The notes under the pieces were generated by a model. The model was not told where the DNA came from, ran no database searches, and saw nothing but the letters and a program-made list of their open reading frames with translations. From assembly GCA_001820095.1 (NCBI GenBank), contig MHOO01000011.1:1958-65957 (forward strand): a DNA stretch of 64,000 nt, read 5' to 3'. The stretch is from Candidatus Staskawiczbacteria bacterium RIFCSPHIGHO2_01_FULL_39_25. GTDB taxonomy: Bacteria; Patescibacteriota; Minisyncoccia; Minisyncoccales; Staskawiczbacteraceae. Positions 1 through 60,370 of the stretch are shown piece after piece; the stretch's first letter is position 1; each line of letters starts with the position of its first letter. Position numbers and translations under genes: made by a program.

Positions 1-138
1 TCCTAATTAACCTAATTATACTAATTAACCTAATCAAATCCTAAATCCTAATGCCAAAATTTTTAAAATGTTCTTTAGGAATTAGACATTTACCTGTTTA
101 GAAATTGATTAGAATAATTAGAGCAATTAGAATAATTC

Positions 139-2121: not shown

Positions 2122-2958
2122 ATGGATAAAACAGACATCAAAAAATTCCAGGTCACCATCTGGAGTTTTTATAAAGCAAATAAGCGAAATTTCCCGTGGC
2201 GTAACACAACAGACCCCTATAAAATTCTCGTTTCTGAAATCATGCTCCAGCAAACGCAGGCCGATAGGGTGGTTGCATTTTACGAAAGATGGATTAAGCG
2301 CTTCCCTGGTATTACATCGCTTGCAAGTGCCAAATTTAGCGAAATTTACCCCTTCTGGCAAGGACTTGGCTACAACCGGCGCGCCTTGGCGTTGCAAAAA
2401 CTAGCTAAAGAAGTGGCAAGCGAGCATCAGGGAAAACTGCCAGTCGATATTGTTTTATTGCAACAACTGCCCGGCATAGGGCCGTACACGGCGCAAGCCA
2501 TCAGCATTTTCTCATATAACAGGCCTCTTACATGCTTAGAAACTAATATCCGCCGGGTTTTTATCCACCATTTCTTTCCAGAAGGCGACGCAGTAACCGA
2601 TGAGGAAATTTTACCGTTATTAGATTTGGCATTGCCTGCAAAAAGATCACGAGAATGGCATTGGGCGCTCATGGATTATGGCGCACACTTAAAAAGTACT
2701 GTCCCCAATCCAAACCGCCGTCATAAAAATTACAGCATACAATCAAAATTTGAAGGCTCCGTTAGACAAATAAGAGGATCAATATTGAGAAATTTGGCAG
2801 GGAAAAAGATGAGTTTTTCTGAATTAATGAAAATATATCCACCGCGGAACAACGCGGAATCTTATGCGGAAAAACGCGGAAAACTAAAAATTATTTTAGA
2901 CAGCATGGAAAAAGAAGAGTTAATAACCCACGACAAAAAAAATTATTCGTTAAAATAA
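2122..2958 (+). CDS. HhH-GPD DNA glycosylase, MutY/Nth-like, apparently lacking the 4Fe-4S cysteine cluster
   Basis: N-terminus PWR..DPYKILVSEIMLQQTQ, GLGYNRRA, LPGIGPYTA helix-hairpin-helix; no Cys-x6-Cys-x2-Cys-x5-Cys loop seen. Confidence 0.75.
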   Translation: MDKTDIKKFQVTIWSFYKANKRNFPWRNTTDPYKILVSEIMLQQTQADRVVAFYERWIKRFPGITSLASAKFSEIYPFWQGLGYNRRALALQKLAKEVASEHQGKLPVDIVLLQQLPGIGPYTAQAISIFSYNRPLTCLETNIRRVFIHHFFPEGDAVTDEEILPLLDLALPAKRSREWHWALMDYGAHLKSTVPNPNRRHKNYSIQSKFEGSVRQIRGSILRNLAGKKMSFSELMKIYPPRNNAESYAEKRGKLKIILDSMEKEELITHDKKNYSLK

Positions 2959-2961
2959 GGT

Positions 2962-3120
2962 ATGAAAAAGAAACCAGCTAAAATAAAAACTGACGAAAAA
3001 ATGACACCGTATATGGAAAAATGGATTGCGAAAGTTGAAAAAGATATAAAGGCAGGGAAAAATATGAGCGGACCCTTTCATTCAACTGAAGAGCTTATGA
3101 AGCATCTTAATAAAAAATAA
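2962..3120 (+). CDS. small hypothetical protein (52 aa, Lys-rich)
   Basis: Uninterrupted ATG..TAA ORF in the gap between the glycosylase and tRNA-Val; no recognisable motif. Confidence 0.25.
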   Translation: MKKKPAKIKTDEKMTPYMEKWIAKVEKDIKAGKNMSGPFHSTEELMKHLNKK

Positions 3121-3127
3121 GAAGAGG

Positions 3128-3203
3128 GGGCGGTTAGCTCAATTGGTAGAGCGCGAAATTGACGTTTTCGAGGCAATAGGTTCGAATCCTATACCGCCCA
3201 CCA
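3128..3203 (+). tRNA. tRNA-Val(GAC)
   Basis: Acceptor gggcggt/accgccc; anticodon stem cgaaa/tttcg, loop ttGACgt; T-loop ttcgaat; 3' CCA encoded. Confidence 0.85.
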
Positions 3204-3207
3204 ATAT

Positions 3208-3927
3208 ATGAATTTAAAAATACTCTACGAAGACAACGATGCGCTGGTGATAGACAAACCTGCGGGAATCGTTGTTTTCCCAGAAGGCGAAACAAAAGGA
3301 AATACGGTGATTGATGCACTTTTAGAAAAATATCCGGATTTAAAAAGCGTAGGAGAGGCGCCGCGATACGGAATTGTCCATAGGCTTGATAAAGACACTT
3401 CTGGCCTGTTATTGGTGGCAAAAACTACGAAAGTCTTGATTTTTCTGCAAAAACAGTTTAAAAATAGAGAGGTAGAAAAGAAATATACCGCACTTGTTTG
3501 CGGAACAGCAAAAGACGACTACGGCGAGATTAAAACCCTTATTGGCAGGTCGCCCCAAGACCCCAGAAAACAGAAAGCATATTCCCTAGAAGAACTTAAT
3601 AAAATAGGCAAACGAGAAGCAATTACAGAATACAAAGTTTTAGAACGCTTTGAAAAATACACGTTATTGGAAGTACAGATAAAAACGGGCAGGAAGCATC
3701 AAATACGGTGCCATTTAGCCTACATCCACCATCCAATTGCAGGAGATAAAACGTATGGATTCAAAGATTCGCCTATGCCTGAAGGATTAACCAGGCAATT
3801 CCTGCATGCGTCATATTTGAAAATACAATTATCAAACGGCCAAACCAAGGAATTTAGGTCAGAATTGCCGGAAGAATTAGAAATAGTAATTAAGAATATA
3901 GAATCTGGTATCTTGAATCTGGAATAG
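3208..3927 (+). CDS. RluA-family pseudouridine synthase
   Basis: HRLDKDTSGLLLVAKT catalytic Asp motif; K..IRCHL; last about 12 codons lie in a TAGAATCTGG-type repeat. Confidence 0.85.
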   Translation: MNLKILYEDNDALVIDKPAGIVVFPEGETKGNTVIDALLEKYPDLKSVGEAPRYGIVHRLDKDTSGLLLVAKTTKVLIFLQKQFKNREVEKKYTALVCGTAKDDYGEIKTLIGRSPQDPRKQKAYSLEELNKIGKREAITEYKVLERFEKYTLLEVQIKTGRKHQIRCHLAYIHHPIAGDKTYGFKDSPMPEGLTRQFLHASYLKIQLSNGQTKEFRSELPEELEIVIKNIESGILNLE

Positions 3928-4012
3928 AATATGGAATAAAGAATATTTAAGATATATTCTAAATTCAAAATTCCATTCAAGCTACTAGATACTGAATTCA
4001 AGATTCAAAATA
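3895..4012. repeat. short-period repeat block (tagaatctggtatcttgaatct ... attccattcaagctac); copy 1 of 3
   Basis: Near-identical blocks at 31545-31670 and 33170-33250. Confidence 0.7.
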
Positions 4013-5424: not shown

Positions 5425-5537
5425 CAAAAAAATCGCGAAGCGATTTTAGTTATTAGTTGATAGTTAGCAGTTGTTAGAAAAAAAATCTAGAAACTAACGA
5501 CTAAAGACTAATAACTATTTTGGCCTCGCCAAAATAT

Positions 5538-6241: not shown

Positions 6242-6777
6242 TAAAGTATGATCCCGAAAAGGGATTTTTTATTATGAAAAACACTATTTTTAAGAGTAAA
6301 TCCCCTATTATTAGCTCTATAGTAATAGGCGTTATATCTGGAATAGTATTGTATGGGACATTCGTTCCAGAAACCATCAACGCCGATCTTAAAAACTCGG
6401 CTCCTTTGGCCAACCAGTCAACACTGGTTAAAAACGGCCATCTAACCATTTGCAAGCTAGACAGATCTTCTTACGAAGTGGTTAAAAAGGTAAAAATGAT
6501 GGTTACGGCTTATTCAAGCACCGAAGACCAAACGGATGATACGCCGTTTATTACCGCTTCAGGCAAAAAGGTGGCTGATGGAATTATTGCCAATAACATG
6601 CTGCCATTTGGAACTAAAATAAGGATTCCAGAGCTCTACGGAGATAAGATTTTTACCGTAGAAGACAGGATGCATAAAAGAAAAGGCCACTACCAAGCTG
6701 ATATTTGGTTTGAAGAGCATATAGAAGCTAAAAACTTCGGGGCAAAAGTTGCCAATATAGAAGTGGTAGAGAGTTAA
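6232..6777 (+). CDS. 3D-domain (MltA-like) cell-wall protein
   Basis: N-terminal TM; TAYSS..QTDDTPFITASGKKVADGIIAN..LPFGTKIRIP..FTVEDR matches the 3D domain; the true start may be ATG at 6274. Confidence 0.7.
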   Translation: MLRLKYDPEKGFFIMKNTIFKSKSPIISSIVIGVISGIVLYGTFVPETINADLKNSAPLANQSTLVKNGHLTICKLDRSSYEVVKKVKMMVTAYSSTEDQTDDTPFITASGKKVADGIIANNMLPFGTKIRIPELYGDKIFTVEDRMHKRKGHYQADIWFEEHIEAKNFGAKVANIEVVES

Positions 6778-11947: not shown

Positions 11948-12048
11948 AGTGATTACAACTATTATACCCGTCAGTATATACTAATTTTATGGAGGATTCA
12001 ACTTTGTCTTTCTGGCATATTCATACACGGAAGGGAATGCTTCCCTCG

Positions 12049-12087
12049 GTCGGGATTTTCCGCTTATGCGGATAAATCTCGCGACCT
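12049..12087. repeat. hairpin repeat GGTCGGGATTTTCCGCTTATGCGGATAAATCTCGCGACC (family copy a, inverted)
   Basis: Reverse complement of copies at 15206-15248 and 61746-61789. Confidence 0.7.
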
Positions 12088-15069: not shown

Positions 15070-15332
15070 TACTTTGAGTTACGAAATGCTTTCGCGGTAT
15101 TTTTCCAGAATTTGGAGATAGAAATTTGATAGAATTTTAAAATGTAGCAAGCTACATTTTAAAATTATTGCGAATTTATAGCCCAAATTCTGGTAGGGAC
15201 GCGCAGGGTCGCGAGAAATTCCCGCGAAGCGGGATTTCCCGACCTAGGCGTAATTCGCTTTAGCGAATTCGCCCCGTCCTAGAAAAGACCCGAAAAAAAA
15301 CGTTTTACATGGGCATTTCGTAATTCAAAGTA
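15070..15332. mobile_element. MITE-like element copy 1 (TIR tactttgaGTTACGAAATGC / GCATTTCGTAATTCaaagta); carries GGGTCGCGAGA hairpin copy b internally
   Basis: 20-bp terminal inverted repeats shared with copies at 19161-19336 and 57348-57522; internal nested palindromes; no ORF. Confidence 0.75.
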
Positions 15333-17405: not shown

Positions 17406-17431
17406 TTTACAGACTCCCGGAGTCTGTAAAA
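17406..17431. repeat. palindromic repeat TTTACAGACTCCCGGAGTCTGTAAAA (copy 1 of 2)
   Basis: Identical copy at 52823-52850. Confidence 0.7.
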
Positions 17432-17451
17432 TACGGGGGTCTGTAAAATAG

Positions 17452-18198: not shown

Positions 18199-18205
18199 AG
18201 ATGAA

Positions 18206-18356
18206 ATGATTCTAATTATTCTAATTGCTCTAATTATTCTAATCAATATCTAATGTCTCAATGACTAGTTGCTCAAGAAAACATTTTGGGCATTGGGATT
18301 TGGAAATTAGGACTTGATTAGGTCAATTAGAATAATTAGATTAATTAGAAATTTTA
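18206..18356. repeat. ATTAG-type 9-bp-periodic repeat, inverted pair (rc arm 18206-18258, spacer, forward arm 18300-18356)
   Basis: gattctaattattctaattgctctaattattctaatcaatatctaatg ... gacttgattaggtcaattagaataattagattaattagaaat; sits between ABC ATPase and permease genes. Confidence 0.8.
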
Positions 18357-18357
18357 A

Positions 18358-19152
18358 CTATCTCATTAATTTATTGTTGATTCGCATCTGGTTCAACCCT
18401 ACATTTCCCTGTTCTTCGCGCATGGTGCTACCCGTAAGGGTAATAAACGCATCTTCTAATTTATTGACTCCTGCTTTCTGGAGAATTTCCTCAATAGTTC
18501 CAATAATAAGGATCTTTCCATGGTCAATAATAGCAATTCGTTGGGCAATGCGTTCTACTTCCTCCATATGGTGGGTAGTAAAAAATATGGTAACGTGCTC
18601 TTTTTTATTCAAATTATTAATGTAGCTCCAAATATGGTTTCTGGTCTGGGGATCAAGGCCGATGGTGGGTTCATCTAGAAACAGTATTTTGGGGTGGTGC
18701 AGCAACCCGCGGGCAATTTCAAGGCGCCGTTTCATGCCTCCTGAAAAATTTTTCACAAATGAATCTCTGCGGTCATATAATTCCACTAAACGCAATAAAT
18801 CCAGAATACGCTCATGGTACATTGGTTTTTGCAATCCATAGAGAATGGCATGAAATTGCATATTTTCATAAGCGGTAAGTTCATTATCTAGGCTGGGATC
18901 TTGAAACACAATTCCAAAAGAAGCCCGCACTTGATGCTGCTGGCGCATGGGGTCGCATCCATTAATGATAATGCTTCCTGACGTAGGTTTTACCAAAGTG
19001 GTAAGCATTTTTATGGTAGTAGTTTTGCCCGCTCCATTGGGCCCTAAAAATGCAAATACTTCTCCCTTTTGCACACTAAAAGATATATCGTTTACGGCGG
19101 CAAAATCCCCATATTTTTTCGTAACACCTTTTGTTTCTATGATATTTTCCAT
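18358..19152 (-). CDS. ABC transporter ATP-binding protein
   Basis: Walker A GPNGAGKTTT; signature LSGGMKRRLEIA; Walker B ILFLDEPT. Confidence 0.95.
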   Translation of the reverse strand: MENIIETKGVTKKYGDFAAVNDISFSVQKGEVFAFLGPNGAGKTTTIKMLTTLVKPTSGSIIINGCDPMRQQHQVRASFGIVFQDPSLDNELTAYENMQFHAILYGLQKPMYHERILDLLRLVELYDRRDSFVKNFSGGMKRRLEIARGLLHHPKILFLDEPTIGLDPQTRNHIWSYINNLNKKEHVTIFFTTHHMEEVERIAQRIAIIDHGKILIIGTIEEILQKAGVNKLEDAFITLTGSTMREEQGNVGLNQMRINNKLMR

Positions 19153-19160: not shown

Positions 19161-19336
19161 TACTTTGAATTACGAAATCCCTAATGAAAAGGCAAGTTTC
19201 AGGTCTTTTCTCTAAATTTCATCTGCAAATTTGCAATAATTGTGATGCGTAGGCAAGCTACGCCTCACAATTCTATCAAATTTTCGCCGTGAAATTTAAA
19301 GAAAATCCCTAGAAAGCATTTCGTAATTCAAAGTAT
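19161..19336. mobile_element. MITE-like element copy 2 (TIR TACTTTGAATTACGAAAT / ATTTCGTAATTCAAAGTA)
   Basis: Perfect 18-bp TIRs; internal palindrome ataattgtgatgcgtaggcaagctacgcctcacaattctat; no ORF. Confidence 0.75.
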
Positions 19337-19372
19337 AATGATAAAAAATGGGGAATTAGAATTTAGTTAATG

Positions 19373-22753: not shown

Positions 22754-22904
22754 GTTTTTTAATTTCTAATTACTAATTTATAATTTCTATTAAATATCTG
22801 ATACTTTAATTTCTAAACACGACGGGTTTGAAAATTATTTCATTGAAAATTTAATAAAAATTAGAAATTGAAAATTGAAAATTTTAACAGTTTTTATAAA
22901 CAAA

Positions 22905-23552: not shown

Positions 23553-23689
23553 GTTATTGTTAAATTCGAAATTCCAATAGGACCTTACAGGGATGACCTG
23601 CAGGTCAAGCGAAATTCGAAACAATATCTAAATCCTAATGTTCAAATATTTTAAACGCATTTTGAATTTTGGATTTTGGATTTTGGATT

Positions 23690-23735
23690 TGTTTCGGATT
23701 TCGGATTTAGAATTTCGGATTTGAAAAAGTTTCCA
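23690..23735. repeat. TTTGGATTT / TTCGGATTT 8-9-bp tandem repeat
   Basis: ttttggattttggattttggatttgtttcggatttcggatttagaatttcggattt. Confidence 0.7.
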
Positions 23736-27153: not shown

Positions 27154-27159
27154 GCCAAC

Positions 27160-27300
27160 GAATTTTCAATTTTCAATTCCCAATTTTCAATCAATTATCA
27201 ATGAAACGAATTTTCAATGACGAAAACGTTAATTTGATAATTTGGTAATTTAATACTTGATTGATAATTGATACTTGATAATTGATAATTAAAATTTACT
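27160..27300. repeat. TTTTCAATT / TTGATAATT short-period repeat block
   Basis: caattttcaattcccaattttcaatcaattatcaatg ... ttgataattgatacttgataattgataatt; related copies at 42905-42960 (inside ksgA) and 61685-61740. Confidence 0.7.
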
Positions 27301-28612: not shown

Positions 28613-28730
28613 GCTCGCTCTTCAGAAACCCACGGTTTCTGATACTCGCTTCGCTCGTAGTTTCCTAGACGGGGAAACCGAAGTTTCCCCGACCCCCTTC
28701 CAGTTGTATTAATATTTGTAAATCTCTTTA
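28613..28730. other. GC-rich multi-hairpin block upstream of nusA (possible leader or structured RNA)
   Basis: gaaacccacggtttc, ggggaaaccgaagtttcccc, tcgctcgcaagctcgctc; composition contrasts with flanks. Confidence 0.3.
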
Positions 28731-31544: not shown

Positions 31545-31670
31545 TATAGAATCTTGAATTTGGAATCTAGTAGCTTGAATGGAATTGTGAATTTAGAATG
31601 TAGGTTTTTCAATTCTTCATTCTTTTATTCTATTCTAGATTCAAGATACCAGATTCTATATTCACACTAC
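31545..31670. repeat. TAGAATCTGG / ATTCCATTCAAGCTAC repeat block (copy 2)
   Basis: Matches 3895-4012 and 33170-33250. Confidence 0.65.
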
Positions 31671-33154
31671 TAAGTGACCCAATACTTGCTTTTTGTTACC
31701 TTGTCTTGCTCTGCCTGCACTTCAAATTTTTCCTCTTTTGATTTCTCTGCTAAATTTTTCAGTTTTTTATCATCTAATGCCCCTAAAGTTTTGATTTCTC
31801 CCTCTAAAAATTCCTTAGTATTTTTCTTTGGATCATCCAATACATATCCCAATAGTATATCTAAAATTTGCCCTACCTTAGGCCCCGGCTGTATTTTTAA
31901 AATATCCATAATATCTTTTCCGTCCACCTTCAACATTTTCACAGAAATAGGATCTTTTGAAACTTTTTCAATAACATATTTTAAATGCCGCAACTTATAA
32001 GGCTCTGCCTTTGGAACACCAGAACCAATCCTGTCAGCTTCCCGTAATTGCAACAATTCCTCCATATTTTCAGGCCTTACCTTTTTTACCAATCTTCTTA
32101 CCGATGATTCTGAAACTTCATCTACATTATAGTAAAACATATGGTGCCGTATCAAATTTACTATTTTTTCAGTGTCTTTATTTGAAAACTTCAAACGTTG
32201 TAAAATCTGGAAGGCCATTTTAGCTCCTAGAACTTCGTGGTTATAAAAAGTGGATTCTTTGCCCTCGCCAACTTTTGCGCGGGGTTTTCCAATATCATGG
32301 AAGAGGGCTGCCAGCCTTACATGCATATTAAATTTTTTCTTAGCAGCGTATTCCAGCGCTTTTAAGGCATGCTGGTAGCAATCATAGATATGGTGCTTAT
32401 TCTGGCCAACACCGTAATTTTCTTCTAATTCAGGGACAATATGTTTTAAAAGGCTAAGGTTGCGGAGCAAATCAACGCCATCAGAAGCCTTAGGCAACAT
32501 AATAATTTTTACAAATTCATCCCGTATTCTTTCTTGTGAAATAGCCTTTAGCCAAATGCTGTTTTTTTTAATAGCTTCGGCAGTTTTTGGTTCAATGGTA
32601 AATTCTAAGGTTGTTGCAAACCGCACTGCTCTTAACATTCGCAGAGCATCTTCATTAAACCTTTCATCGGGACTTCCAACGGTTCTAATAATTTTTTTCT
32701 TCAGATCTTTTTGCCCATCGAAAAGATCTATGATATTTAAATTGGATTTTATCTTTATTTCGGATTTCGAATTTCGTGCTTCGGATTTAATACCAATGGC
32801 CATTGCATTTACGGTAAAATCCCTTCTTGCCACATCTTCGTCTAAACTTTTAGCGAATCTTATTTCATCAGGATGGCGCTTATCTGAATATTTGGCTTCT
32901 AGCCGGTAGGTTGTAATTTCAACTTCTGGGATTTTCTCGCTTCCTGTTTTTGCCGTTACGGTCAAAAATTTATTCTCATAAAAATTATCAGGAAACACTT
33001 TTTGGATTTCTTCTGGCGCAGCTTCCGTAGCAACATCCCAATCTTTGGGTTCTATGCCAAGCAAAAAATCACGGACGCATCCGCCGACGATATAAGCCTG
33101 ATAGCCCGCGTCTTTCAACTTCTTCAGTATGGATTTTACCTCTTGTGGGATAAC
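31670..33154 (-). CDS. cca: CCA-adding tRNA nucleotidyltransferase with HD domain; carries an in-frame repeat insertion
   Basis: GGCVRDFLLG..DWD polymerase-beta head; HD motif HDIGK; listed ORF to 33232 reads through a repeat, ATG at 33154 (MVIPQEV) taken as start; codons for IKSEARNSKSEIKIKS (about 32755-32790) are a CGGATTTCGAA repeat copy. Confidence 0.85.
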   Translation of the reverse strand, partial: VIPQEVKSILKKLKDAGYQAYIVGGCVRDFLLGIEPKDWDVATEAAPEEIQKVFPDNFYENKFLTVTAKTGSEKIPEVEITTYRLEAKYSDKRHPDEIRFAKSLDEDVARRDFTVNAMAIGIKSEARNSKSEIKIKSNLNIIDLFDGQKDLKKKIIRTVGSPDERFNEDALRMLRAVRFATTLEFTIEPKTAEAIKKNSIWLKAISQERIRDEFVKIIMLPKASDGVDLLRNLSLLKHIVPELEENYGVGQNKHHIYDCYQHALKALEYAAKKKFNMHVRLAALFHDIGKPRAKVGEGKESTFYNHEVLGAKMAFQILQRLKFSNKDTEKIVNLIRHHMFYYNVDEVSESSVRRLVKKVRPENMEELLQLREADRIGSGVPKAEPYKLRHLKYVIEKVSKDPISVKMLKVDGKDIMDILKIQPGPKVGQILDILLGYVLDDPKKNTKEFLEGEIKTLGALDDKKLKNLAEKSKEEKFEVQAEQDKVTKSKYWVT

Positions 33155-33169
33155 CATTATTAAGAATCT

Positions 33170-33250
33170 GGAATCTTGTATCTTGAAGCTAGAATACGAA
33201 CCGTAAAATTCTATATTCAACATTCCATTCAAGCTACCAGATACAAGATT
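33170..33250. repeat. TAGAATCTGG / ATTCCATTCAAGCTAC repeat block (copy 3)
   Basis: Matches 3895-4012 and 31545-31670. Confidence 0.65.
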
Positions 33251-33315
33251 CTAGATTCATAGTATAGTAAAGTTTGCTTTTTTTCAATTTTTATCGTAAA
33301 ATCATTTAATTAATT

Positions 33316-37050: not shown

Positions 37051-37112
37051 CGGACAGCATATAGCTTTAGTAGAAAGCTAAATCCTATAAGCTATGCCTT
37101 AAATCCTAATAA

Positions 37113-42597: not shown

Positions 42598-43512
42598 ATG
42601 AATTTACTCTCAATCGCTACCATAAAAAACCTGCTGACTGAATTTGGAACTAAGCCCTCAAAAGGGATGGGCCAGAATTTTTTGATAGATGAAAAAACGC
42701 TTAATAACATTATAGAAGCCGCCCAGCTTACCGAAGAAGACACGGTATTGGAAATAGGACCCGGGCTGGGAACTCTTACCAAAGCATTGGCAGAAAAAGC
42801 CAAAAAAGTCATTGCCATAGAAAAAGACGCTGTTTTTATTGAAATTCTTAAAAAAACCCTTAGTAATTTTATGAATGTTGATATAATTAATGGCAACATT
42901 CTTAAAATGAATTTTCAATTATCAATTATCAATTTTCAATCAAATTCCAATATTCAATTGCCAAAAAATTATAAATTGGTTGCTAACCTGCCTTATTATA
43001 TTACCTCTCCGGTCATAAGAAAGTTTTTAGAGATGGAAAATTCTCCAACGTCCATGGTATTTATGATACAAAAAGAAGTGGCTCAAAGAATTTGCGCCAA
43101 GCCGCCAAACATGAGCCTGCTAGCAGTCTCCGTACAGTATTATGCTAAACCCGAAATTATATCATACGTCTCAAAAAAATGCTTTTGGCCTTCTCCAAAC
43201 GTTGACTCTGCCATTATTAAGATTGTGCCGCGGAATTACGCAGAAATTAACCCTGCAAAATCGCCTGAAAGCGATAGCGGAGCAAGCGCGAAACCGCCCC
43301 AAAAAAAAGATATAGATTTGTTTTTTAAGGTGGCAAAAGCGGGGTTTTCCCATCCTAGAAAACAACTATTAAATAACTTATCTGTAAGCCTGAAAATGAA
43401 TAAAGAAAAAATAAATTTATGGCTTTTAACCAACAATATACGGCCATCACAGAGGGCAGAAACACTGACGATAGAAAATTGGACTAGCCTTGCAAATAGC
43501 TTCCCGGTGTGA
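42598..43512 (+). CDS. ksgA: 16S rRNA (adenine1518/1519-N6)-dimethyltransferase RsmA/KsgA with two in-frame low-complexity insertions
   Basis: GQNFL, SAM motif VLEIGPGLGTLT, NLPYYITSP; insertion MNFQLSIINFQSNSNIQ is a TTTTCAATT repeat copy (42905-42960); second insert NPAKSPESDSGASAKPPQKK. Confidence 0.9.
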   Translation: MNLLSIATIKNLLTEFGTKPSKGMGQNFLIDEKTLNNIIEAAQLTEEDTVLEIGPGLGTLTKALAEKAKKVIAIEKDAVFIEILKKTLSNFMNVDIINGNILKMNFQLSIINFQSNSNIQLPKNYKLVANLPYYITSPVIRKFLEMENSPTSMVFMIQKEVAQRICAKPPNMSLLAVSVQYYAKPEIISYVSKKCFWPSPNVDSAIIKIVPRNYAEINPAKSPESDSGASAKPPQKKDIDLFFKVAKAGFSHPRKQLLNNLSVSLKMNKEKINLWLLTNNIRPSQRAETLTIENWTSLANSFPV

Positions 43513-45943: not shown

Positions 45944-46447
45944 ATGGAAAAAATTAATAATCAACGAATAGTCTTTAACCTACCAGAAGATACCACAATA
46001 GTTGAAGTTATTGATGAAATTTTGAAAAATAATGGACTTGAGGAAAATAATAAAGAATTCATTAATAAATTAAAACAAGAGAAAGAGCCTAAATTTAGCG
46101 TAGCCAAAGACGCAGCGATAACCCTTGCACAAAAAAAGATCCCTGAAAAAAAGTTAATTGAACTACTGGCAAAACATCTCGAAACTTCTAAAGAAAATGC
46201 TGAAAAAATAGTGCGAGACATTAAGCAAAAACTTATTCCTTATGCTAAAAAAGTACCCACAGAAGAACCACTGAAAAAGAAAGAAATCATTCAGGCCGAA
46301 TCCCAAAAATCTCCCTTGCCTTATAGCAAAAAAATAGAAACCGCTAATGTAGAAGAAAACGCGGAAAAACTACAGAAGGCAAGAACGGTAATTCAGCAGA
46401 AAGAAGAAAGTAAGGGACCGGATTCGTACCGAGAAACTCTTGATTAG
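45944..46447 (+). CDS. hypothetical protein
   Basis: 167 aa, Lys/Glu-rich; no motif. Confidence 0.4.
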   Translation: MEKINNQRIVFNLPEDTTIVEVIDEILKNNGLEENNKEFINKLKQEKEPKFSVAKDAAITLAQKKIPEKKLIELLAKHLETSKENAEKIVRDIKQKLIPYAKKVPTEEPLKKKEIIQAESQKSPLPYSKKIETANVEENAEKLQKARTVIQQKEESKGPDSYRETLD

Positions 46448-46920
46448 GGTTTAGCGTCTAGGGGTTAGGGTATAGACAAAACTAATTAAACGCTAGACTC
46501 CAACACCTAAACCCTAATTCATTATGTATTTAGAATCCTATAAAAAACTCATAGTTTGGCAAAAATCTATTGAATTAGTAAAAAAAGTTTATATTTTAAC
46601 AAGCAACTTTCCACAGAGCGAACTTTATGGAATAACTTCACAAATGAGAAGAGCAGCAATATCTATTCCTTCAAATATAGCCGAGGGATACTCAAGAAAA
46701 AATTTAAAAGAATATTTACAATTTTTAAGAATTTCTTATGGTTCATCAACAGAGTTAGAGACCCAATTAATAATAGCAAAAGATTTATATAAGAACATAC
46801 ACTATAAACCTACCGAGGAACTACTAGAAGAAGTATTAAAAATGTTGAATGTAATGATTAATAAATTAGAAAACAAAAATTAACTAACTAAACGCTATAC
46901 CCTATACGCTAAACCCTAAC
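46444..46920. repeat. inverted-repeat-flanked cassette carrying a four-helix-bundle gene (IR arms about 46444-46522 and 46881-46920)
   Basis: Left ttagggtttagcgtctaggggttagggtatag vs right ctataccctatacgctaaaccctaa (reverse complement). Confidence 0.65.
46524..46883 (+). CDS. four-helix-bundle protein (23S rRNA intervening-sequence protein / Avd-like family)
   Basis: ISIPSNIAEGYSRKNLKEYLQFLRISYGSSTELETQLIIAKDL is the family signature. Confidence 0.8.
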   Translation: MYLESYKKLIVWQKSIELVKKVYILTSNFPQSELYGITSQMRRAAISIPSNIAEGYSRKNLKEYLQFLRISYGSSTELETQLIIAKDLYKNIHYKPTEELLEEVLKMLNVMINKLENKN

Positions 46921-46923
46921 AAT

Positions 46924-47328
46924 ATGTCACAATATCCCATTCCACAATTTATTGAAGAAGAAGGAAAAATTATCTTTTTCCTAACATTCCGGCAATTTTT
47001 TCTGCTTGCAGGAGGAGGAGCTGTTTGCCTTATTATATATTTTCTAGCCCCTTATTCCCTCTTTTTGGGCGCCGCGGCCCTTATTATGATAACGGTTATC
47101 GTCATAGCCTTTGTGAAGGTTCAGAACGCATCCATAGTAACTGTTGTGCTTAATATGCTTGGATTTATGGTAGGTAAAAAAAACTACACCTGGAGTAAAA
47201 GGGGAACAAATGCACGGCCCGAAACAGAAAGAAAGCAAGAATTTAAAAAACCCGTTGAAGTTCCGGCCCCAAAACTACAGCCCAGCAAACTAAGAGCAGC
47301 GCAGAAGATGATAGAGGTGAGGAAGTAA
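46924..47328 (+). CDS. PrgI/VirB3-like small T4SS membrane protein
   Basis: IPQFIEEEGKIIFFLTFRQFFLLAGGGAVCLIIYFL N-terminal pattern with two TM; immediately upstream of VirB4. Confidence 0.5.
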   Translation: MSQYPIPQFIEEEGKIIFFLTFRQFFLLAGGGAVCLIIYFLAPYSLFLGAAALIMITVIVIAFVKVQNASIVTVVLNMLGFMVGKKNYTWSKRGTNARPETERKQEFKKPVEVPAPKLQPSKLRAAQKMIEVRK

Positions 47329-47377
47329 TTATCCTAATTAACCTAATTATTCTAATTGTTCTAATCAAACCCTAATG
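47329..47377. repeat. ATTAG-type repeat arm (rc orientation) ending in ccctaATGtcc, which supplies the start of ORF 47375
   Basis: ttatcctaattaacctaattattctaattgttctaatcaaaccctaatg. Confidence 0.8.
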
Positions 47378-47770
47378 TCCAATGAAAAAAATACAAAATA
47401 CGATTTAGAAGAAAGAACTGCTAAATTCGGAGAAGATATTATAAATTTTGCAAAAATCATTCCAGTAAATCCAGTTACTCAAAGAATTATTCCTCAATTA
47501 GTAGCATCCGGAACTTCTATGGGCTCAAATTACTGTGAAGCAGACGATGCAGAATCTGGCAAAGACTTTAAGCATAAAATAGGAATTTGCAAAAAAGAGG
47601 GCAGAGAAACAAAATACTGGCTAAGGATGATAGCTGCTGCAGTGCCAGCATTAAGAGAAGAAGCACGAGTTTTTTGGCAGGAAGCTAAAGAATTACACTT
47701 AATCTTTAATGCTATTTATCGTAAAGTTAACAAAAAGCCTTTAGAAATTAAAAAATTAAGTATTGATTAG
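47375..47770 (+). CDS. four-helix-bundle protein, second paralog (TIGR02436-like)
   Basis: SGTSMGSNYCEADDAESGKDFKHKIGICKKEGRETKYWLRM matches the 4HB/IVS family pattern; flanked on both sides by ATTAG repeat arms. Confidence 0.65.
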   Translation: MSNEKNTKYDLEERTAKFGEDIINFAKIIPVNPVTQRIIPQLVASGTSMGSNYCEADDAESGKDFKHKIGICKKEGRETKYWLRMIAAAVPALREEARVFWQEAKELHLIFNAIYRKVNKKPLEIKKLSID

Positions 47771-47811
47771 GTAAATTAGATTAATTAGTATAATTAGAAT
47801 AATTTCAAAAC
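47765..47811. repeat. ATTAG-type repeat arm (forward orientation) ending aataatttcaaaacATG, which supplies the start of ORF 47812
   Basis: attaggtaaattagattaattagtataattagaataatttcaaaac; same terminal 27 nt precede ORF 48788. Confidence 0.8.
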
Positions 47812-48486
47812 ATGGAGCCGGCGACACAAGATTTTTTAGAAATTCAAGACATTAGAGAAGGCATTGTGATCTTGAAAAATAACAACATACGGGGGATATT
47901 AATGGTTTCCTCTATTAATTTTGCCTTAAAATCTGACGAGGAGCAGTCAGCCATTATTTATGCCTTCCAGAGTTTTTTAAACTCGCTGGATTTTTCGTGC
48001 CAGATTATCATACAATCCAGAAACATCAATATCACCCCCTACTTAGACAACATTAAAGCATTAGAAGAAAACCAAACGAGCGAGCTCATGAAAGCACAAA
48101 CTGCCTCATACGGAGAATTTATCCGAGAGCTAGTGAAAGGAGACAATGTAATGACAAAAAGCTTTTATGTGGTGGTGCCATATACGTTAGCAGAAATACT
48201 GGGAGTTGGATCTGCGGTAAGCAAATTTAATTTCTCTGAAATGCTAGGATTAGGCAAGAAAAGCAAAGGGGAGAATAAGCCGATAATAAAAGATGAAGAC
48301 TTTGAAAAGTGCAAAAACCAGCTTTGGCAAAGGATGGAATTTGTAGCCATGGGGTTAAAGAGGTGCGGATTAGACGTTATTCCCCTGACCACCCCGGAGT
48401 TGATTGAACTATTTTGGGCAACCCACCACCCCAGTGAAGCAGAAATCGGATACTCGCCGGAAGTAGTGCCAGAACTGCTGAAATAA
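47812..48486 (+). CDS. VirB4-family protein, N-terminal fragment
   Basis: FLEIQDIREGIVILKNNNIRGILMVSSINFALKSDEEQ matches the N-terminal domain of Gram-positive-type VirB4 (TcpF/PrgJ-like); stops at TAA at the first base of a repeat. Confidence 0.6.
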   Translation: MEPATQDFLEIQDIREGIVILKNNNIRGILMVSSINFALKSDEEQSAIIYAFQSFLNSLDFSCQIIIQSRNINITPYLDNIKALEENQTSELMKAQTASYGEFIRELVKGDNVMTKSFYVVVPYTLAEILGVGSAVSKFNFSEMLGLGKKSKGENKPIIKDEDFEKCKNQLWQRMEFVAMGLKRCGLDVIPLTTPELIELFWATHHPSEAEIGYSPEVVPELLK

Positions 48487-48787
48487 TTATTCTAATTGAC
48501 CTAATTTCTAATTGTTCTAATCAAATCCCAATTCCCAAGCCCCAATTCCCAAACGTAATTTGGGAATTAAGGAATTAGGCATTATTTTCTAGCAAGCGAA
48601 GGCAATAAAGATTCACAAATATTTATTGCCAAGCGGCGACGAAAATATGCTTTGCATATTTAGAATAATAGAAATAGGATTTATATAATACGTCGCTCGG
48701 TCGGCATACGTGAAACTGCGGTTTCCCCTATGCCTCCCTTGGCTAGTATTATTAGAGCAATTAGTATAATTAGAATAATTTCAAAAC
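48487..48787. repeat. composite repeat cassette splitting virB4: ATTAG arm, CCCAATTCCCAA repeats, and a 130-bp element (48655-48787) that is the inverted copy of 60153-60285
   Basis: Direct comparison: reverse complement of 48655-48787 matches 60153-60285 at about 97% over about 130 nt. Confidence 0.85.
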
Positions 48788-50590
48788 ATGTCATTTTTTA
48801 GTAAAAAAGAAAATAAGCAAAAAGGAGAAACAGAAGAAAGGTTCTTTGAAGAAGAGACTCTTAATATAAAGGATATTATTGCGCCTCCTTACATCGGGAT
48901 AACCCAGGACCATATTAATTTGGGCGAAAAATTCACCAAATCTTTTTTCATCTTTTCTTATCCTAGGTATTTAAACACAGGCTGGCTTTCCCCCGCTATT
49001 AACCTCAATGTCCCTATGGACATATCTTTTTTCATCCATCCCGTTAACAGTGAATTGATTTTAAAAAAATTAAGGTCAAAAATTACCCAAGTTTCCTCTG
49101 AATTAATGGAGCGGCAGGAAAAGGGGTTAATCCGCGATCCGGCGCTTGAAACCGGCTACCAGGACATTGAAACCTTAAGAGATAAGATAATTACTGCCCA
49201 GGAAAAAATGTTCCGGTTTGGGCTTTATATTACCGTATACCGGGACAATGCGGAACAAATGCGGGAAGTAGAATCAACTCTGCGGTCAATTTTTGAATCC
49301 CGACTAATCTATATAAAGCCCGCCCTATTCAAACAAAAAGAAGGGTTTATTTCCACCAGCCCCTACGGAATGGATTTGCTTTCGGTCCACATTCCTATGA
49401 ACACCGAACCGCTTTCCACCACCTTTCCATTTACGTCATTTGATTTAAGCTCTAACGAGGGAATTTTATACGGCATTAATGGCCACAATAATTCTTTGGT
49501 ATTATTTGACCGTTTTACCTTAGAAAACTCCAACATGGTGGTTTTTGCCAAGTCAGGATCCGGGAAATCATACGCCATAAAGCTGGAAATATTGAGATAC
49601 CTAATGTGGGGAGTTGATGTGATTGTTATTGACCCTGAAAATGAATATGAATTTTTGGCTGATGGAGTGGGAGGAGATTTCTTTAAGATATCACTAACAT
49701 CAGATTACCACGTAAACCCTTTTGACTTGCCAGTGCCAGGGCCCGATGACAGCGTAGATGACATTTTGCGGTCAAACGTAATAAATTTAGTGGGATTGTT
49801 AAGAATTATGCTAGGCGGATTGACGCCGGAAGAAGACAGCATCTTAGACCAAGCCCTTACCGAAACTTACGCCATACGGGATATTACCCCCCAATCTGAC
49901 CCTGCTACCTGGCAGGAAAATATACCGGTAATGTCTGACTTTGCGGAAATTTTAGAAAATATGACCGGAGCTGAATCCTTAGCCAGGCGCCTTAAAAAAT
50001 TCACCCAGGGAACGTTTGCGGGATTTTTTAATAGAAAATCAAATATTACGATTGAAAAAAACTTTATTGTGTTTGGCATACGGGATATGGAAGAATCTTT
50101 AAAACCCATTGCCCTGTTTATGGTCATGCGCTACGTATGGAATATCATCAGGAGCACGGTAAAAAAGAGGATTCTGGTTATTGATGAAGCCTGGTGGCTG
50201 ATGCAATCAGAAGATGGAGCTTCATTCTTGTTTGGCTTGGTAAAAAGGGGCAGAAAATATTGGCTGGGGGTAACTACCATAACCCAAGACATAGAAGATT
50301 TTATGAAGTCTTCATATGGCAAAGCCATTATTACCAATTCTTCGCTGCAGCTTTTGTTAAAACAGTCTCCGGCGGCTCTTGACGTACTGCAAACCACCTT
50401 TGACTTAACCGAACAGGAAAAAACACTTTTATTGGATGCCAATGTGGGAGAAGGCCTTTTCTTTGCCGGAAAAAAGCATGTCTATATCGGCGTAAAAGCC
50501 AGCTACACCGAAGACCAGATTATAACTACCAGCCCCGGGGAGGTTGAAAAAATCAGGGAGGCAAGGAAAAAATTACAACAACAGCAGTAA
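48788..50590 (+). CDS. VirB4/TrbE/CagE-family T4SS ATPase, C-terminal (ATPase) part
   Basis: IAPPYIGIT...FFIFSYPRYLNTGWL; Walker A FAKSGSGKSYAIK; Walker B VIDEAWWLM; 600 aa. Confidence 0.85.
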   Translation: MSFFSKKENKQKGETEERFFEEETLNIKDIIAPPYIGITQDHINLGEKFTKSFFIFSYPRYLNTGWLSPAINLNVPMDISFFIHPVNSELILKKLRSKITQVSSELMERQEKGLIRDPALETGYQDIETLRDKIITAQEKMFRFGLYITVYRDNAEQMREVESTLRSIFESRLIYIKPALFKQKEGFISTSPYGMDLLSVHIPMNTEPLSTTFPFTSFDLSSNEGILYGINGHNNSLVLFDRFTLENSNMVVFAKSGSGKSYAIKLEILRYLMWGVDVIVIDPENEYEFLADGVGGDFFKISLTSDYHVNPFDLPVPGPDDSVDDILRSNVINLVGLLRIMLGGLTPEEDSILDQALTETYAIRDITPQSDPATWQENIPVMSDFAEILENMTGAESLARRLKKFTQGTFAGFFNRKSNITIEKNFIVFGIRDMEESLKPIALFMVMRYVWNIIRSTVKKRILVIDEAWWLMQSEDGASFLFGLVKRGRKYWLGVTTITQDIEDFMKSSYGKAIITNSSLQLLLKQSPAALDVLQTTFDLTEQEKTLLLDANVGEGLFFAGKKHVYIGVKASYTEDQIITTSPGEVEKIREARKKLQQQQ

Positions 50591-52822: not shown

Positions 52823-52850
52823 TTTTACAGACTCCCGGAGTCTGTAAAAT
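52823..52850. repeat. palindromic repeat TTTTACAGACTCCCGGAGTCTGTAAAAT (copy 2)
   Basis: Identical to 17406-17431. Confidence 0.7.
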
Positions 52851-53574: not shown

Positions 53575-53904
53575 TTATATTTTTTTAAAGAATTTTGCGA
53601 TAGCCGCCTGTATTTCTAGAAACTCTTTCTTATTGATTTGAGGCAACGCAATAATAACTACATCTGCCGGTTTTTTCAGATTTTTCAATTCATAAAAAGC
53701 TGCGTCCCTTAATCTTCTCTTAATTTTATTCCTTTGGGTAGCTTTGGAGGAAACTTTCTTGCTTACGATAAAGCCGAAACGGCCTTCTGGCAAATGATTT
53801 CCCATTGACTTGCATACCAAAAAATCATTTTTTATAGTTTCCCCCCTTTTAAAGACGGCATCAAAATCCTTTTTCTTAGTTAATCGGTTAATTTTGGGCA
53901 ACAA
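53575..53904 (-). CDS. rnpA: RNase P protein component
   Basis: LPKINRLTKKKDFDAVFKRG and KATQRNKIKRRLR RnpA signatures; listed ORF to 53952 uses a TTG inside the ATTAG repeat; the TTG at about 53901-53904 gives the canonical N-terminus. Confidence 0.85.
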   Translation of the reverse strand: MLPKINRLTKKKDFDAVFKRGETIKNDFLVCKSMGNHLPEGRFGFIVSKKVSSKATQRNKIKRRLRDAAFYELKNLKKPADVVIIALPQINKKEFLEIQAAIAKFFKKI

Positions 53905-53912
53905 CTTAAATG

Positions 53913-54057
53913 AATTCCTAATTATTCTAATTGCTCTAATTATTCTAATCAAATCCTAACTTCTAATGTCTAATTTATAAAAAATACTTATTCATTGGGA
54001 TTTGAGTATTGGGGCTTGATTAGGTTAATTAGAAATTAGGTTAATTAGTATAATTCC
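53913..54057. repeat. ATTAG-type 9-bp-periodic inverted repeat pair (rc arm 53913-53975; forward arm 54020-54057)
   Basis: cctaattattctaattgctctaattattctaatcaaatcctaacttctaatgtc ... cttgattaggttaattagaaattaggttaattagtataatt. Confidence 0.8.
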
Positions 54058-54060
54058 GCA

Positions 54061-54195
54061 TTATACCGCTAATTTCTTCCTTCCCTTTGCTCTCCTTCTT
54101 TGGATAACCTGCCTGCCTTTTTTAGTTTGTGCGCGTTTTAGGAAGCCATGGGTCCTTTTTCTCTTTTTCTTTTTTGGTTTATAGGTAAAACTCAT
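54061..54195 (-). CDS. rpmH: 50S ribosomal protein L34
   Basis: Hand translation [44 protein letters not shown] (44 aa); not in the supplied ORF list. Confidence 0.9.
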
Positions 54196-54575
54196 AATTA
54201 AATTGTATTTAATATTAATTTTAGTATAATATGGCTAGTATAGTACAAAATAGGCCCTTGGTCAAACCATATTTTAATTTGAAATTTGAAATATTTTACA
54301 TTGAATTCAAATGGCCTAAATTTCAAATTTCAAATTCATCGGTATTGTGCGTCTAAATAGAAACATATCACACAAATTATCCACAGTTTAACCACAGTTG
54401 TTCTTATTTTACCCTAATTTGACAAAGGGTTAATAAATAGAAAAAATACACTATTAAGTAATACTCACCTAATTCAAGATAAGTGAAAATGTATTTCACT
54501 TATCTGTTAGACCTATTGCGTAATAAGGTTTGTAGTATAAAAACTTATTACGCAACAGGTCTATTGTTTGTAATT
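54196..54575. other. putative oriC part 1 (rpmH-dnaA intergenic) with DnaA box TTATCCACA at 54377-54385 and a 17-bp perfect hairpin at 54510-54561
   Basis: Canonical rpmH-dnaA position; AT-rich; consensus DnaA box; AAATTTCAAATT repeats at 54285-54340. Confidence 0.6.
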
Positions 54576-55934: not shown

Positions 55935-56170
55935 CCCACATAATAACTTGCATATTAAAAAAATAAAAAATATATACCATTATTATTACCTGCCCTATTT
56001 ATATTTTTTTTAACTACACTATCCACAGGTTATTTTTAAAAAAATTAAGGACAAATTAAAATAAAATTTTAATAAAAAATTCATAAAATACGCGAGCTAA
56101 TAACAATAATAAGTTTTAATATATTAATAACTATTGTTAAAAATTAATAACCTGAAAAAAGAAAAGGAAT
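55935..56170. other. putative oriC part 2 / DNA unwinding element (dnaA-dnaN intergenic, extremely AT-rich)
   Basis: About 85% AT; partial DnaA box TATCCACAG at about 56010. Confidence 0.5.
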
Positions 56171-57310: not shown

Positions 57311-57342
57311 AAAAAACAACCCCGCGGGGTTGTTTTTTTAGT
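57311..57342 (+). terminator. rho-independent terminator
   Basis: aaaaaaacaaccccgcggggttgttttttt. Confidence 0.75.
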
Positions 57343-57347
57343 TTCTA

Positions 57348-60203: not shown

Positions 60204-60370
60204 AGGGGAAACCGCAGTTTCACATATGCCGACCGAGCGACGTATTATATAAATCCTATTTCTATTATTCTAAATAATAACTAATGTCTAATTTCTAAAA
60301 ACTTTTGGCATTAGGATTTAGGATTTGATTAGGTCAATTAGTATAATTAGGTTAATTAGACTAATTTATT
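60147..60370. repeat. composite repeat: ATTAG arm, 130-bp element 60153-60285 (inverted copy of 48655-48787), ATTAG arms to 60370
   Basis: See feature 48487-48787. Confidence 0.85.

Follow-up and report, generated by a model that had tools for sequence, protein, structure and literature searches.

The stretch analysed here comprises 64,000 nucleotides of contig MHOO01000011.1 (positions 1,958 to 65,957, forward strand) from Candidatus Staskawiczbacteria bacterium RIFCSPHIGHO2_01_FULL_39_25, and we refer to it as the window. Its intergenic DNA contains arrays of a 9-bp unit built on the motif ATTAG, which occur in pairs and form six elements (E1 to E6) at junctions between genes. An earlier note on this DNA had described the arrays as 9-bp-periodic and as inverted pairs, and both observations stand. 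Tandem Repeats Finder reports a period of 9 at all of the sites; the pattern ATTAGNNNNATTAG matches 31 times in the window, always in intergenic DNA, compared with a mean of 0.33 and a maximum of 2 in 100 shuffles; and clusters of at least three ATTAG/CTAAT motifs correspond exactly to the 12 arms, with CTAAT in the left and ATTAG in the right arm of each pair. All arms fall within the 12.3% of the window that is left free by a simple map of open reading frames (ORFs) and tRNA genes. The unit consists of AATTAG plus three variable bases, the number of units per arm ranges from 3 to 7 across copies, and dispersed arms in the window are 95-98% identical to each other.

Each pair of arms is one element rather than two independent features. 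The six elements are co-oriented with their flanking genes, which are always co-directional, and in this direction they run from the upstream stop codon through arm B, the core, a loop, the complementary core, and arm A to the next start codon. Arm B has the form (CTAATTNNN)n-CTAATCAA and is often followed by one or two ATCCTAA heptamers. Arm A has the form (AATTAGNNN)n, or more fully TTG(ATTAGNNNA)n-ATT, and the start codon of the next gene lies 5-11 bases past its ATT. The palindromic core is CYAATGYC...GRCATTRG, with a left half CYAATG(T/C)C and a right half TTAG(A/T)CATT. Placement of the arrays exactly on gene starts, which the earlier note had described, therefore holds for arm A, which adjoins starts, but not for the reverse-complement arm (arm B), which adjoins the upstream stop codon. 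The reverse-complement arms do terminate in ctaATGtc/cc, as had been observed, and at 47375 this ATG is the start of a gene of the PF05635 family.

This gene is the cargo of E3 (47329-47811, plus strand), which occupies the junction between PrgI and a gene for a TraC-like N-domain protein (TraC-N). Arm B of E3 (47329-47377) begins in or beside the PrgI TAA (47326-47328) and ends with CCTAATG, which supplies the start codon of the cargo. The cargo (47375-47770) encodes a 131-aa protein of the PF05635 family (23S_rRNA_IVP), a four-helix bundle (4HB), with a score of 41.1 bits against a cutoff of 33.8. Its ATG is the ATG of the core CCTAATGTC and its stop codon, TAG, lies inside the first ATTAG of arm A (47763-47811), which directly precedes the TraC-N ATG at 47812. 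The other five copies in the window are ORF-less and about 140-300 nt long, and many more such copies occur in other genomes of the Candidate Phyla Radiation (CPR). Short and long forms share the core CYAATGYC, which contains the 4HB start codon, and TTAGWCATT; given that the short copies retain both core halves, their "ctaATGtc" is a relic or copy of the 4HB start, and this relic ATG opens only 6-16 codons.

E1 (1-138, plus strand) precedes ftsH. Its arm B (1-58), which is cut by the window edge, is composed of (CTAATTNNN)n, CTAATCAA, (ATCCTAA)2, and the ATG relic, and its core and loop (59-104) hold the TTAGGAATTAGACATT half of the palindromic core; at the corresponding core position a 4HB-bearing element in another genome (L002) has TTAGAAATTAGACATT, which overlaps the 3' end of the 4HB ORF. 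Arm A of E1 (105-138) reads TTG(ATTAG AAT A / AGC A / AAT A)ATTC, has an in-frame TAA at 133-135, and lies directly before the ftsH ATG at 139. E2 (18199-18357, minus strand) separates an ABC ATPase from an ABC-2 permease: arm A (18199-18246) lies beside the likely permease ATG at 18198, the core and loop (18247-18289) contain the relic CTAATGTC, and arm B (18290-18357) adjoins the ATPase stop codon (18358-18360). E4 (48487-48787, plus strand) lies between TraC-N and the gene for the C-terminal part of VirB4 (VirB4-C). Its arm B (48487-48552), nonamers followed by CCCAATT heptamers, starts directly after the TraC-N TAA; its interior (48553-48744) contains no ORF; and its arm A (48745-48787) directly precedes the VirB4-C ATG at 48788. 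E5 (53905-54057, minus strand) lies between rpmH, which we read directly from the sequence at ~54071-54205 (minus strand), and rnpA. Its arm B (53993-54057) follows rpmH, its core and loop (53956-53992) contain the relic CTAATGTCTAAT, and its arm A (53905-53955) adjoins the likely rnpA start, the TTG at 53904. E6 (60147-60370, minus strand) lies between ruvC and a small acidic ORF: arm B (60298-60370), downstream of the ruvC stop at 60439, is 97% complementary to positions 3-64; the interior (60183-60297) combines a module also present in E4 with the core relic CTAATGTCTAAT; and arm A (60147-60182) precedes the acidic ORF, whose ATG (60146, minus strand) is directly preceded by aattcaaaaaATG.

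The module common to E4 and E6 is 94 nt long and GC-richer, with 99% identity between 48657-48750 in E4 and 60183-60276 (minus strand) in E6; it is also found at a locus in another genome (L083) and has no Rfam match. Rfam searches of the whole window at gathering thresholds, and of E4 at permissive E-values, returned only tRNAs and chance matches; neither the arrays nor the module belongs to a known RNA family. Hairpin motifs that are GC-richer and have the form GGTCGCGAGA...CCCGACCTAGG or CGGCATACGTGAAACTGCGGTTTCCCCTATGCC recur intergenically at 12041-12086, 15195-15290, 28613-28720, 48690-48745, 60185-60245, and 61747-61792, a set that includes the E4/E6 module (48690-48745 and 60185-60245), of which the E4 copy is without an Rfam match.

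According to the earlier note, the arrays donate start codons, and do so in both orientations. The forward arms end as it had reported, in aataattcATG before ftsH (139) and in ...tcaaaacATG before TraC-N (47812) and VirB4-C (48788). However, relatives that lack an ATTAG element at these junctions have corresponding N-termini: VirB4-C begins MSFFSKK in the window, MPLFGK in one relative (L123), and MAFFKK in another (L121), and TraC-N begins MEPATQD in the window and MDSATQD in L121. The ftsH ATG (139) is the first start after the in-frame TAA. The host start codons are ancestral, and the 4HB start is the only ATG that the element owns; the reverse-complement ATG that suggested a function in the second orientation is this same 4HB start, or its relic in the short copies. 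The ORF extensions that run from a TTG and yield N-termini of the IRIIRAIRIIR type are present for the ABC-2 permease and rnpA, as had been pointed out, and also for the acidic ORF, but we regard them as annotation artefacts. The true starts are likely the ATG at 18198 for the permease and the TTG at 53904 for rnpA, based on the protein lengths seen in relatives; rnpA read from the TTG beyond the array matches the 108-113 aa of its relatives. We also considered that an element had split virB4, and rejected this: all close homologs are ~600 aa long and are accompanied by a separate TraC-like N gene, so the split is ancestral. The VirB4-C protein of the window has an identical counterpart in Candidatus Staskawiczbacteria (Parcubacteria/CPR). 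The window contains 18 tRNA genes in 64 kb, and many of its genes have no Shine-Dalgarno sequence. In several, a TATAAT-like hexamer precedes the ATG by only 2-20 nt, suggesting that many mRNAs of this genome are leaderless or have short leaders.

We examined how arms and cargo are associated in a sample that was chosen without reference to the arrays, namely 80 metagenome loci of at least 560 relatives, selected only by similarity (63-78% identity) to the ATTAG-linked 4HB protein. In 39 of the 71 loci with both flanks, nine-spaced CTAAT upstream is combined with nine-spaced ATTAG downstream, and the wrong arm orientation occurs in none of the 71 upstream flanks and in three of the 71 downstream flanks. 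The remaining loci have inverted arrays of other units, for example (GAATGAC)n/(GTCATTC)n, CCGAAT/ATTCGG, or ATTAGNN with period 7. Of the 53 loci with a repeated 6-mer upstream, 40 have its reverse complement repeated downstream, and native arm pairs are more complementary than chimeric ones (-41.8 vs -36.3 kcal/mol), a difference matched by 0 of 10,000 permutations. The cassettes are also strongly polarized. Both flanking genes are in sense at 35 loci and both in antisense at none, with 7 convergent and 4 divergent arrangements; the upstream gene is co-oriented in 55/59, at a median distance of 50 nt from its stop codon to the 4HB ATG. Replication strand was rejected as the cause of polarity in the window, where E3 and E4 (plus) and E5 (minus) lie on the same side of dnaA/oriC and each follows the local gene direction. 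In the chromosomal origin region (53575-57295), which E5 directly adjoins, jag(R3H), yidC, rnpA, and rpmH are minus-strand genes and dnaA (54483-55934) and dnaN (56171-57295) plus-strand genes, with the dnaA/dnaN origin region itself at ~54.1-56.2 kb; a perfect DnaA box, TTATCCACA, lies near 54380 and a copy with one mismatch, CTATCCACA, near 56025 in an A/T-rich spacer.

Comparison of junctions among relatives supports mobility. The region from the type IV secretion system to rnpA is syntenic in relatives with VirB4 85-88% identical, and in two of them all junctions are empty, with gaps of mostly 0-5 nt: PrgI and TraC-N overlap or are 3 nt apart, TraC-N and VirB4-C are separated by 5 nt, and rpmH and rnpA by 1 or 20 nt. 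Two empty sites read TAATTATTATG and TTAGAATAATTTATG, which resemble element ends. A third arrangement is found in L121, where a PDDEXK_3 (PF13366) gene lies between inverted (TTCCGCGNNA)n arms of period ~10 at the PrgI/TraC-N junction (2698-3219), an ORF-less (AATTTTT)n hairpin separates TraC-N from VirB4-C, and the latter is followed by a 4HB gene with (TTAGGGT)n/(ACCCTAN)n arms on its two sides; PDDEXK_3 is a second cargo family with the same cassette architecture. In another relative (L308), three junctions are each occupied by a different 4HB cassette. A second PF05635 gene is also present in the window (46524-46883, E = 2.6e-36), between a 167-aa ORF (45944-46447) and PrgI. Period-7 arrays flank it (46444-46923 in all): upstream lies a TTAGGGT-type/ACCCTAA-type inverted pair and downstream one more ACCCTAA-type arm. 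Its product shares 82% identity with the 4HB of L121, which has the same arm type at a different junction, and at the junction of the window's second 4HB gene L308 has a 23%-identical 4HB with different arms. Based on these comparisons of the window, L121, and L308, arms and ORF travel as a unit and junctions are colonised independently.

Beyond this region, ATTAG arrays accompany a 4HB gene of 66-80% identity at six other genome loci, and in four of the six (L002, L059, L102, and L035) the gene lies between both arms; in L035 the whole arm-4HB-arm unit is inverted. The 4HB gene is under strong purifying selection (pN 0.12-0.25, pS 0.69-0.91, with synonymous sites at or near saturation), and over the same divergence the arms are 77-95% identical, a figure that is somewhat inflated because repetitive arms align easily. 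A distribution scan with one genome per species and a pattern of four consecutive units gave at least 119 matching stretches. Among the matches listed, most of those with true element structure belong to CPR lineages, namely Saccharibacteria, Microgenomates, and the Staskawicz-, Yanofsky-, Kuenen-, Sungii-, Portnoy-, Berkel-, Roizman-, Levy-, and Woese- lineages. Matches in Bacteroidales, Gammaproteobacteria, and archaea were rejected as elements; those inspected are perfect simple 9-mer tandem repeats, and we treated them as chance. In the other genomes the last arm unit is typically followed by the ATG of a long ORF within ~5-20 nt or by the stop codon of an opposite-strand gene within 5-13 nt. 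A phage vector was considered and rejected: 93 viral contigs match the four-unit pattern, of which only one weakly fits the element profile and none encodes this 4HB protein. At three loci, L006 (539-731), L030 (5114-5240), and L040 (25-153; metagenome-assembled genome BP7.bin63), ATTAG elements are nested in another repeat, GGATCCCGGGTCAAGCCCGGGATGAC, and in L030 a 23S rRNA gene begins ~430 nt downstream of the composite.

One copy links the family to the intervening sequences (IVSs) of rRNA genes. In the Staskawiczbacteria contig MHPA01000032 (L049), an ATTAG element (6428-6571) lies inside the 16S rRNA gene, where the Rfam small subunit alignment shows a 186-nt insertion exactly at a hairpin loop of the V2 region and the rRNA helix continues into the arms; the predicted fold of the insert has an energy of -93 kcal/mol (z = -12). 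One element family thus occurs both as an IVS of rRNA and, in a different genome, between genes. No rRNA was found in the window, and all six of its copies lie between protein-coding genes; what these copies have in common with IVSs is that the arms are predicted to pair and close the element and, in E3, that a PF05635 ORF lies in the loop. In the predicted folds, arms B and A close the whole element, with z scores of -2.7 to -7.2 and with the pairing present in both the minimum free energy and the centroid folds of E1-E5. The energies are -26.4 kcal/mol for E1 (z -4.5), -39 for E2 (z -7.2), -97.7 for E3 (z -2.7), -87.9 for E4 (z -7.1), and -34.6 for E5 (z -3.3). The predicted stem extends from the upstream stop codon, in or beside which it begins, to a point 5-11 nt short of the next start.

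We consider it probable that the ATTAG arrays are the terminal inverted arms of small, palindromic, IVS-type selfish hairpin cassettes that reside at operon junctions and are accompanied by ORF-less derivatives resembling miniature inverted-repeat transposable elements (MITEs). A full-length element consists of arm B, a PF05635 gene with its ATG in the palindromic core, and arm A, and the short copies are the same ends plus the core. Insertion would occur at sites where a self-contained hairpin is harmless, namely the tips of rRNA helices and the very short stop-to-start gaps of tight operons, and this would account for the apparent placement "exactly on" gene ends. Given that the ORF-bearing copies are strictly sense, we infer that the element is co-transcribed with the host operon and that the 4HB gene lives off read-through. 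By analogy with rRNA IVSs, the stem is probably a substrate of RNase III, and a cut would split the message between the cistrons, so that the second one would be preceded only by a short A/U-rich leader without a Shine-Dalgarno sequence. The downstream gene keeps its ancestral start codon and would be translated from this leader, which arm A forms. A ribosome that terminates at the upstream stop codon, where the predicted stem begins, would melt the stem and could preserve the coupling of cistrons that were once 0-5 nt apart. Conservation extends beyond the symmetry of the arms to their sequence, which makes a sequence-specific partner likely; a candidate is the 4HB protein, which might serve the ORF-less copies in trans.

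Several results weigh against this model and make us cautious about its mechanism. In the ATTAG-only short copies, native arms are no better matched to each other than chimeric combinations, in a test that is confounded by arm length, and the variable triplets mismatch systematically between arm A (AAT-AGC-AAT) and arm B (GTC/GTT-AAT-GTT). Short ATTAG elements fold better in the strand antisense to their polarity (mean -38.9 vs -33.2 kcal/mol; 19/25, p = 0.0016), as do 6/6 of the window elements in a tested set that also has 22 other loci, and in the G·U strand test for sense-RNA structure the long forms show no strand asymmetry (p = 0.44). Two possible causes of the antisense bias are recognition of the element as single-stranded DNA and selection for a weaker hairpin in the mRNA. 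A search for an RNase III motif in the DNA examined gave no match and is uninformative. The short ORF-less copies are in sense in 18 and in antisense in 5 of 23 co-directional contexts. In the source population the insertions are fixed, in that 8/8 places shown with an identical TraC-N protein have the same E3/E4 arrangement. No target-site duplication could be defined by comparing filled with empty junctions; no direct repeat was seen there, and the A/T-rich ends (AATTATT...AATAATT) could mask a short or palindromic duplication. To our knowledge, the 4HB family has no recombinase or transposase activity. Given that the strand and chimera tests leave room for a mechanism at the level of double- or single-stranded DNA, our confidence in the processing model is moderate, whereas the identity of the element is well supported.

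The earlier note had favored a mobile translation-initiation or promoter cassette over ordinary intergenic DNA, and part of this is borne out: the arrays are multicopy, conserved, and almost certainly mobile, and they are placed precisely at gene junctions. A role in driving the downstream gene and supplying its start codon, by contrast, seems quite improbable to us. Arm A would here act as a sigma-70-like promoter (TTGATT-N17-TAGAAT), give a leaderless or short-leader mRNA, or serve as an A/U-rich translational enhancer. It is true that E1 has TTGATT, 17 nt, and TAGAAT, which match 9/12 consensus positions, but a scan of 46800-49000 returned 7 promoter-like sites compared with 7.0 expected, none of them in an A arm, and the -35-like TTGATT is absent from most A arms elsewhere, which begin TTTAGAATA. 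In E1, E2, E3, E4, and E6 the distance from TAGAAT to the start codon is 5-11 nt (in E5, ~20 nt to the likely TTG), and the long-ORF ATGs that follow the last unit in many CPR genomes usually have no Shine-Dalgarno sequence; yet the same start codons are used in relatives without the element, identical arrays adjoin stop codons, and one insert containing the element lies inside a 16S rRNA helix. The closest parallel in the literature, the TAACTGA heptamers, has been proposed to regulate translation (PMC4679880), but orthologous cassettes have unrelated arms, for example (GTCATTC)n, which is GC-richer and not promoter-like, and (TTCGGAA)n. That ORF-bearing copies are never antisense, together with the median of 50 nt from stop codon to 4HB ATG, fits read-through rather than a promoter of their own.

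Better placed, though still unlikely in our view, is a function of the arms in DNA, with the nonamers as iterated sites, comparable to the subterminal repeats of transposons or to iterons, for a sequence-specific protein, plausibly a pentameric 4HB. Acting on double- or single-stranded DNA, the protein would mobilise the element or maintain it, and the RNA hairpin would be a by-product. Such a function would explain why different CPR classes share AATTAG and also the "variable" triplets of both arms, why the arms remain so similar while synonymous sites of the 4HB gene are at or near saturation, and why protein type and arm type move together between junctions. It is also consistent with the triplet mismatches and the absence of within-element compensation among ATTAG copies, with the better fold of the antisense strand, which recalls elements recognised as single-stranded DNA, and with the toroidal homopentamer that PMC4990558 cites for S23p. 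On the other hand, the same 4HB subfamily (63-70% identical) occurs with quite different units of period 7 that nonetheless retain inverted symmetry, PDDEXK_3 cassettes have the same architecture without a 4HB gene, and a 9-bp spacing would not place the sites on one face of B-DNA. We know of no nucleic-acid-binding or recombinase activity among PF05635 proteins outside diversity-generating retroelements, which also counts against this function. It overlaps with the IVS-type cassette model, and the two are not mutually exclusive. Far less probable than either is an origin of the arrays as non-mobile repeats that evolved in the host by replication slippage, like the heptamers of cyanobacterial short tandemly repeated repetitive (STRR) sequences, and that serve as mRNA stabilisers, attenuators, or sites for nucleoid proteins. 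The variation from 3 to 7 units between copies would fit slippage, just as heptamer number varies among Coxiella strains (PMC4990558), and many other period-7 inverted arrays fill intergenic gaps in the window. Against this, presence or absence differs at orthologous junctions, different cassette families occupy the same junction, dispersed copies are 95-99% identical with their non-repetitive parts included, and the same unit of arms plus ORF recurs in distant CPR lineages and in an rRNA gene.

We speculate further, while doubting that the evidence will carry it so far, that PF05635 hairpin cassettes, together with those of PDDEXK_3, form a general autonomous mobile class that colonises any transcribed site able to tolerate a stem. 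The arm units, in DNA or in RNA and possibly on the antisense strand, would be the target of the 4HB pentamer, which would promote the spread of its own cassette and of ORF-less copies. If this were true, the origin and mobility machinery of rRNA IVSs would be identified and the S23p family would be given a function; the origin and mobility of rRNA IVSs and the function of their ORF have been open questions since about 1990. With dozens of independent, comparable insertions, ORF-bearing and ORF-less copies, filled and empty sites, and swaps, the IVS question becomes testable. The elements also show how highly compact operons absorb insertions without gene loss. In practical terms, the arrays cause systematic start-codon mis-calls in CPR genomes, where extensions through the stop-free frame give N-termini of the IRIIRAIRIIR type.

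The window contains further repeats. Other intergenic arrays, of period 7 and mostly in inverted pairs, have no cargo gene in the window and resemble the ATTAG elements in overall architecture; they lie at 3894-4012, 5447-5517, 22756-22883, 23619-23722, 27157-27295, 31549-31669, 32742-32788, 33158-33264, 37051-37112, 42906-42954, 54276-54340, 61685-61730, and 61803-61872, and their unit families include GAATATN/ATTCAAN, TAGTTNN/NNAACTA, AATTTTC/TTGATAA, TTCGGAT, AAATTTC, and others. A single array of period 10 (CGCGGAANNN), with the unit type of the arms of the L121 PDDEXK_3 cassette, lies at 2843-2881 in the 3' part of an HhH-GPD glycosylase ORF (2122-2958); this gene may in fact end upstream of the array, or its reading frame may have taken in an arm. 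A separate palindromic family of ~120-190 nt, with ends TTGAATTACGAAATGC...GCATTTCGTAATTCAA, has three intergenic copies that are 73-82% identical (15070-15189, 19162-19348, and 57335-57520). A 27-nt palindrome, TTTACAGACTCCCGGAGTCTGTAAAAT, has two perfect copies (17406-17432 and 52824-52850), each past a gene end and terminator-like in form. Outside the window, some close homologs of VirB4-C (P0043, P0085, P0090, P0103, and P0106) are ~1265 aa long and contain PF14528 and PF14890, which we take to be intein and homing-endonuclease families, so that these would be intein-containing versions of VirB4-C; if so, they represent another type of selfish insertion in the VirB4 operon.

The ATTAG elements share features with several known systems. 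Integron gene cassettes combine a small promoterless ORF with an imperfect palindrome (attC) that folds in a strand-specific manner, and they are inserted in a specific orientation and read from an upstream promoter. ATTAG elements likewise have a small ORF that is probably read from upstream, an imperfect palindrome with strand-specific folding, and orientation-specific placement; unlike integron cassettes, they have a palindrome on both sides of the ORF, have no integrase/attI platform, and are scattered among the junctions of housekeeping operons. The REP/REPIN-RAYT system (repetitive extragenic palindromes and their associated tyrosine transposases) and the Correia elements of Neisseria (NEMIS/CREE) are short, palindromic, multicopy, extragenic sequences that are co-transcribed as mRNA hairpins, and Correia elements are RNase III substrates. 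One protein gene between inverted copies, beside many ORF-less doublets, is a likeness to these systems. The ATTAG elements differ in having no RAYT or any known transposase, in having arms that are periodic arrays rather than a single palindrome, and in having no recognisable duplication of TA or another target. Among the window genes scanned, no tyrosine transposase gene of the IS200/IS605 type was seen beside the arrays. The ORF-less copies resemble MITEs in their terminal inverted repeats, small size, lack of an ORF, and multiple copies, but the only cargo of ATTAG elements is the PF05635 four-helix-bundle protein, which is not known to act as a transposase. TAACTGA heptamer repeats of Beggiatoaceae, Cyanobacteria, and Bacteroidetes lie a few nucleotides upstream of start codons, are suspected of horizontal spread, and occur as 169 direct sets compared with one indirect set (PMC4679880). 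Like these and the STRR heptamers, ATTAG arrays consist of short units (7-9 nt) in tandem that come to within a few nucleotides of start codons. Unlike the ATTAG arrays, which have period 9 and always form inverted pairs round a core, both are direct heptamer repeats that do not flank a core or ORF as paired inverted arms, and they have not been reported in connection with PF05635.

The closest relatives are the rRNA IVSs. Those with an S23p/PF05635 ORF, found in Leptospira, Coxiella, and Xanthomonas, are ~400-750 nt long, and ORF-less ones, found in Salmonella and Campylobacter, ~100-150 nt. In a literature search of incomplete coverage, we found no account of PF05635 or GxxExxY cassettes outside rRNA or of CPR intergenic periodic repeats, none of IVS-type hairpin cassettes at stop/start junctions of protein operons, and none of ORF-less MITE-like derivatives, several arm families per genome, or 9-bp periodic arms. 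The statement of the earlier note that the arrays belong to no described family is accurate in so far as we found no account of such elements between protein genes; in type, however, they match the rRNA IVS (PMC4990558). IVS elements, S23p ORFs, and adjoining heptamers were known already, and the cassettes that dwell at junctions are a new variant, of which a prior description may exist elsewhere. They are unlike IVSs in that the window copies and most others lie between protein-coding genes in operons, in that their arms are long 9-bp arrays with mismatched triplets rather than a near-perfect 28-bp stem, and in that excision by RNase III without religation, which is known for IVSs, is here predicted by analogy. 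In Coxiella, the 23S IVS is a 428-nt selfish element whose terminal inverted repeats form a stem with the S23p ORF in the loop; two to three tandem heptamers (GACAGAT), varying in number by strain, lie directly upstream of the S23p ATG, and RNase III cleaves at the first repeat (PMC4990558). The same paper, which also cites S23p as a toroidal homopentamer, still lists transposon-remnant and mobile-element hypotheses for the IVS, and insertions in CPR rRNA have been reported to encode 23S_rRNA_IVP (PMC11270868). With these elements the ATTAG cassettes share an inverted-repeat stem with an ORF in the loop, the PF05635 family, short tandem repeats of variable number right before the ORF ATG, the lack of a good Shine-Dalgarno sequence, ORF-bearing and ORF-less forms, and a patchy, apparently horizontal distribution (PMC4990558, PMC11270868).

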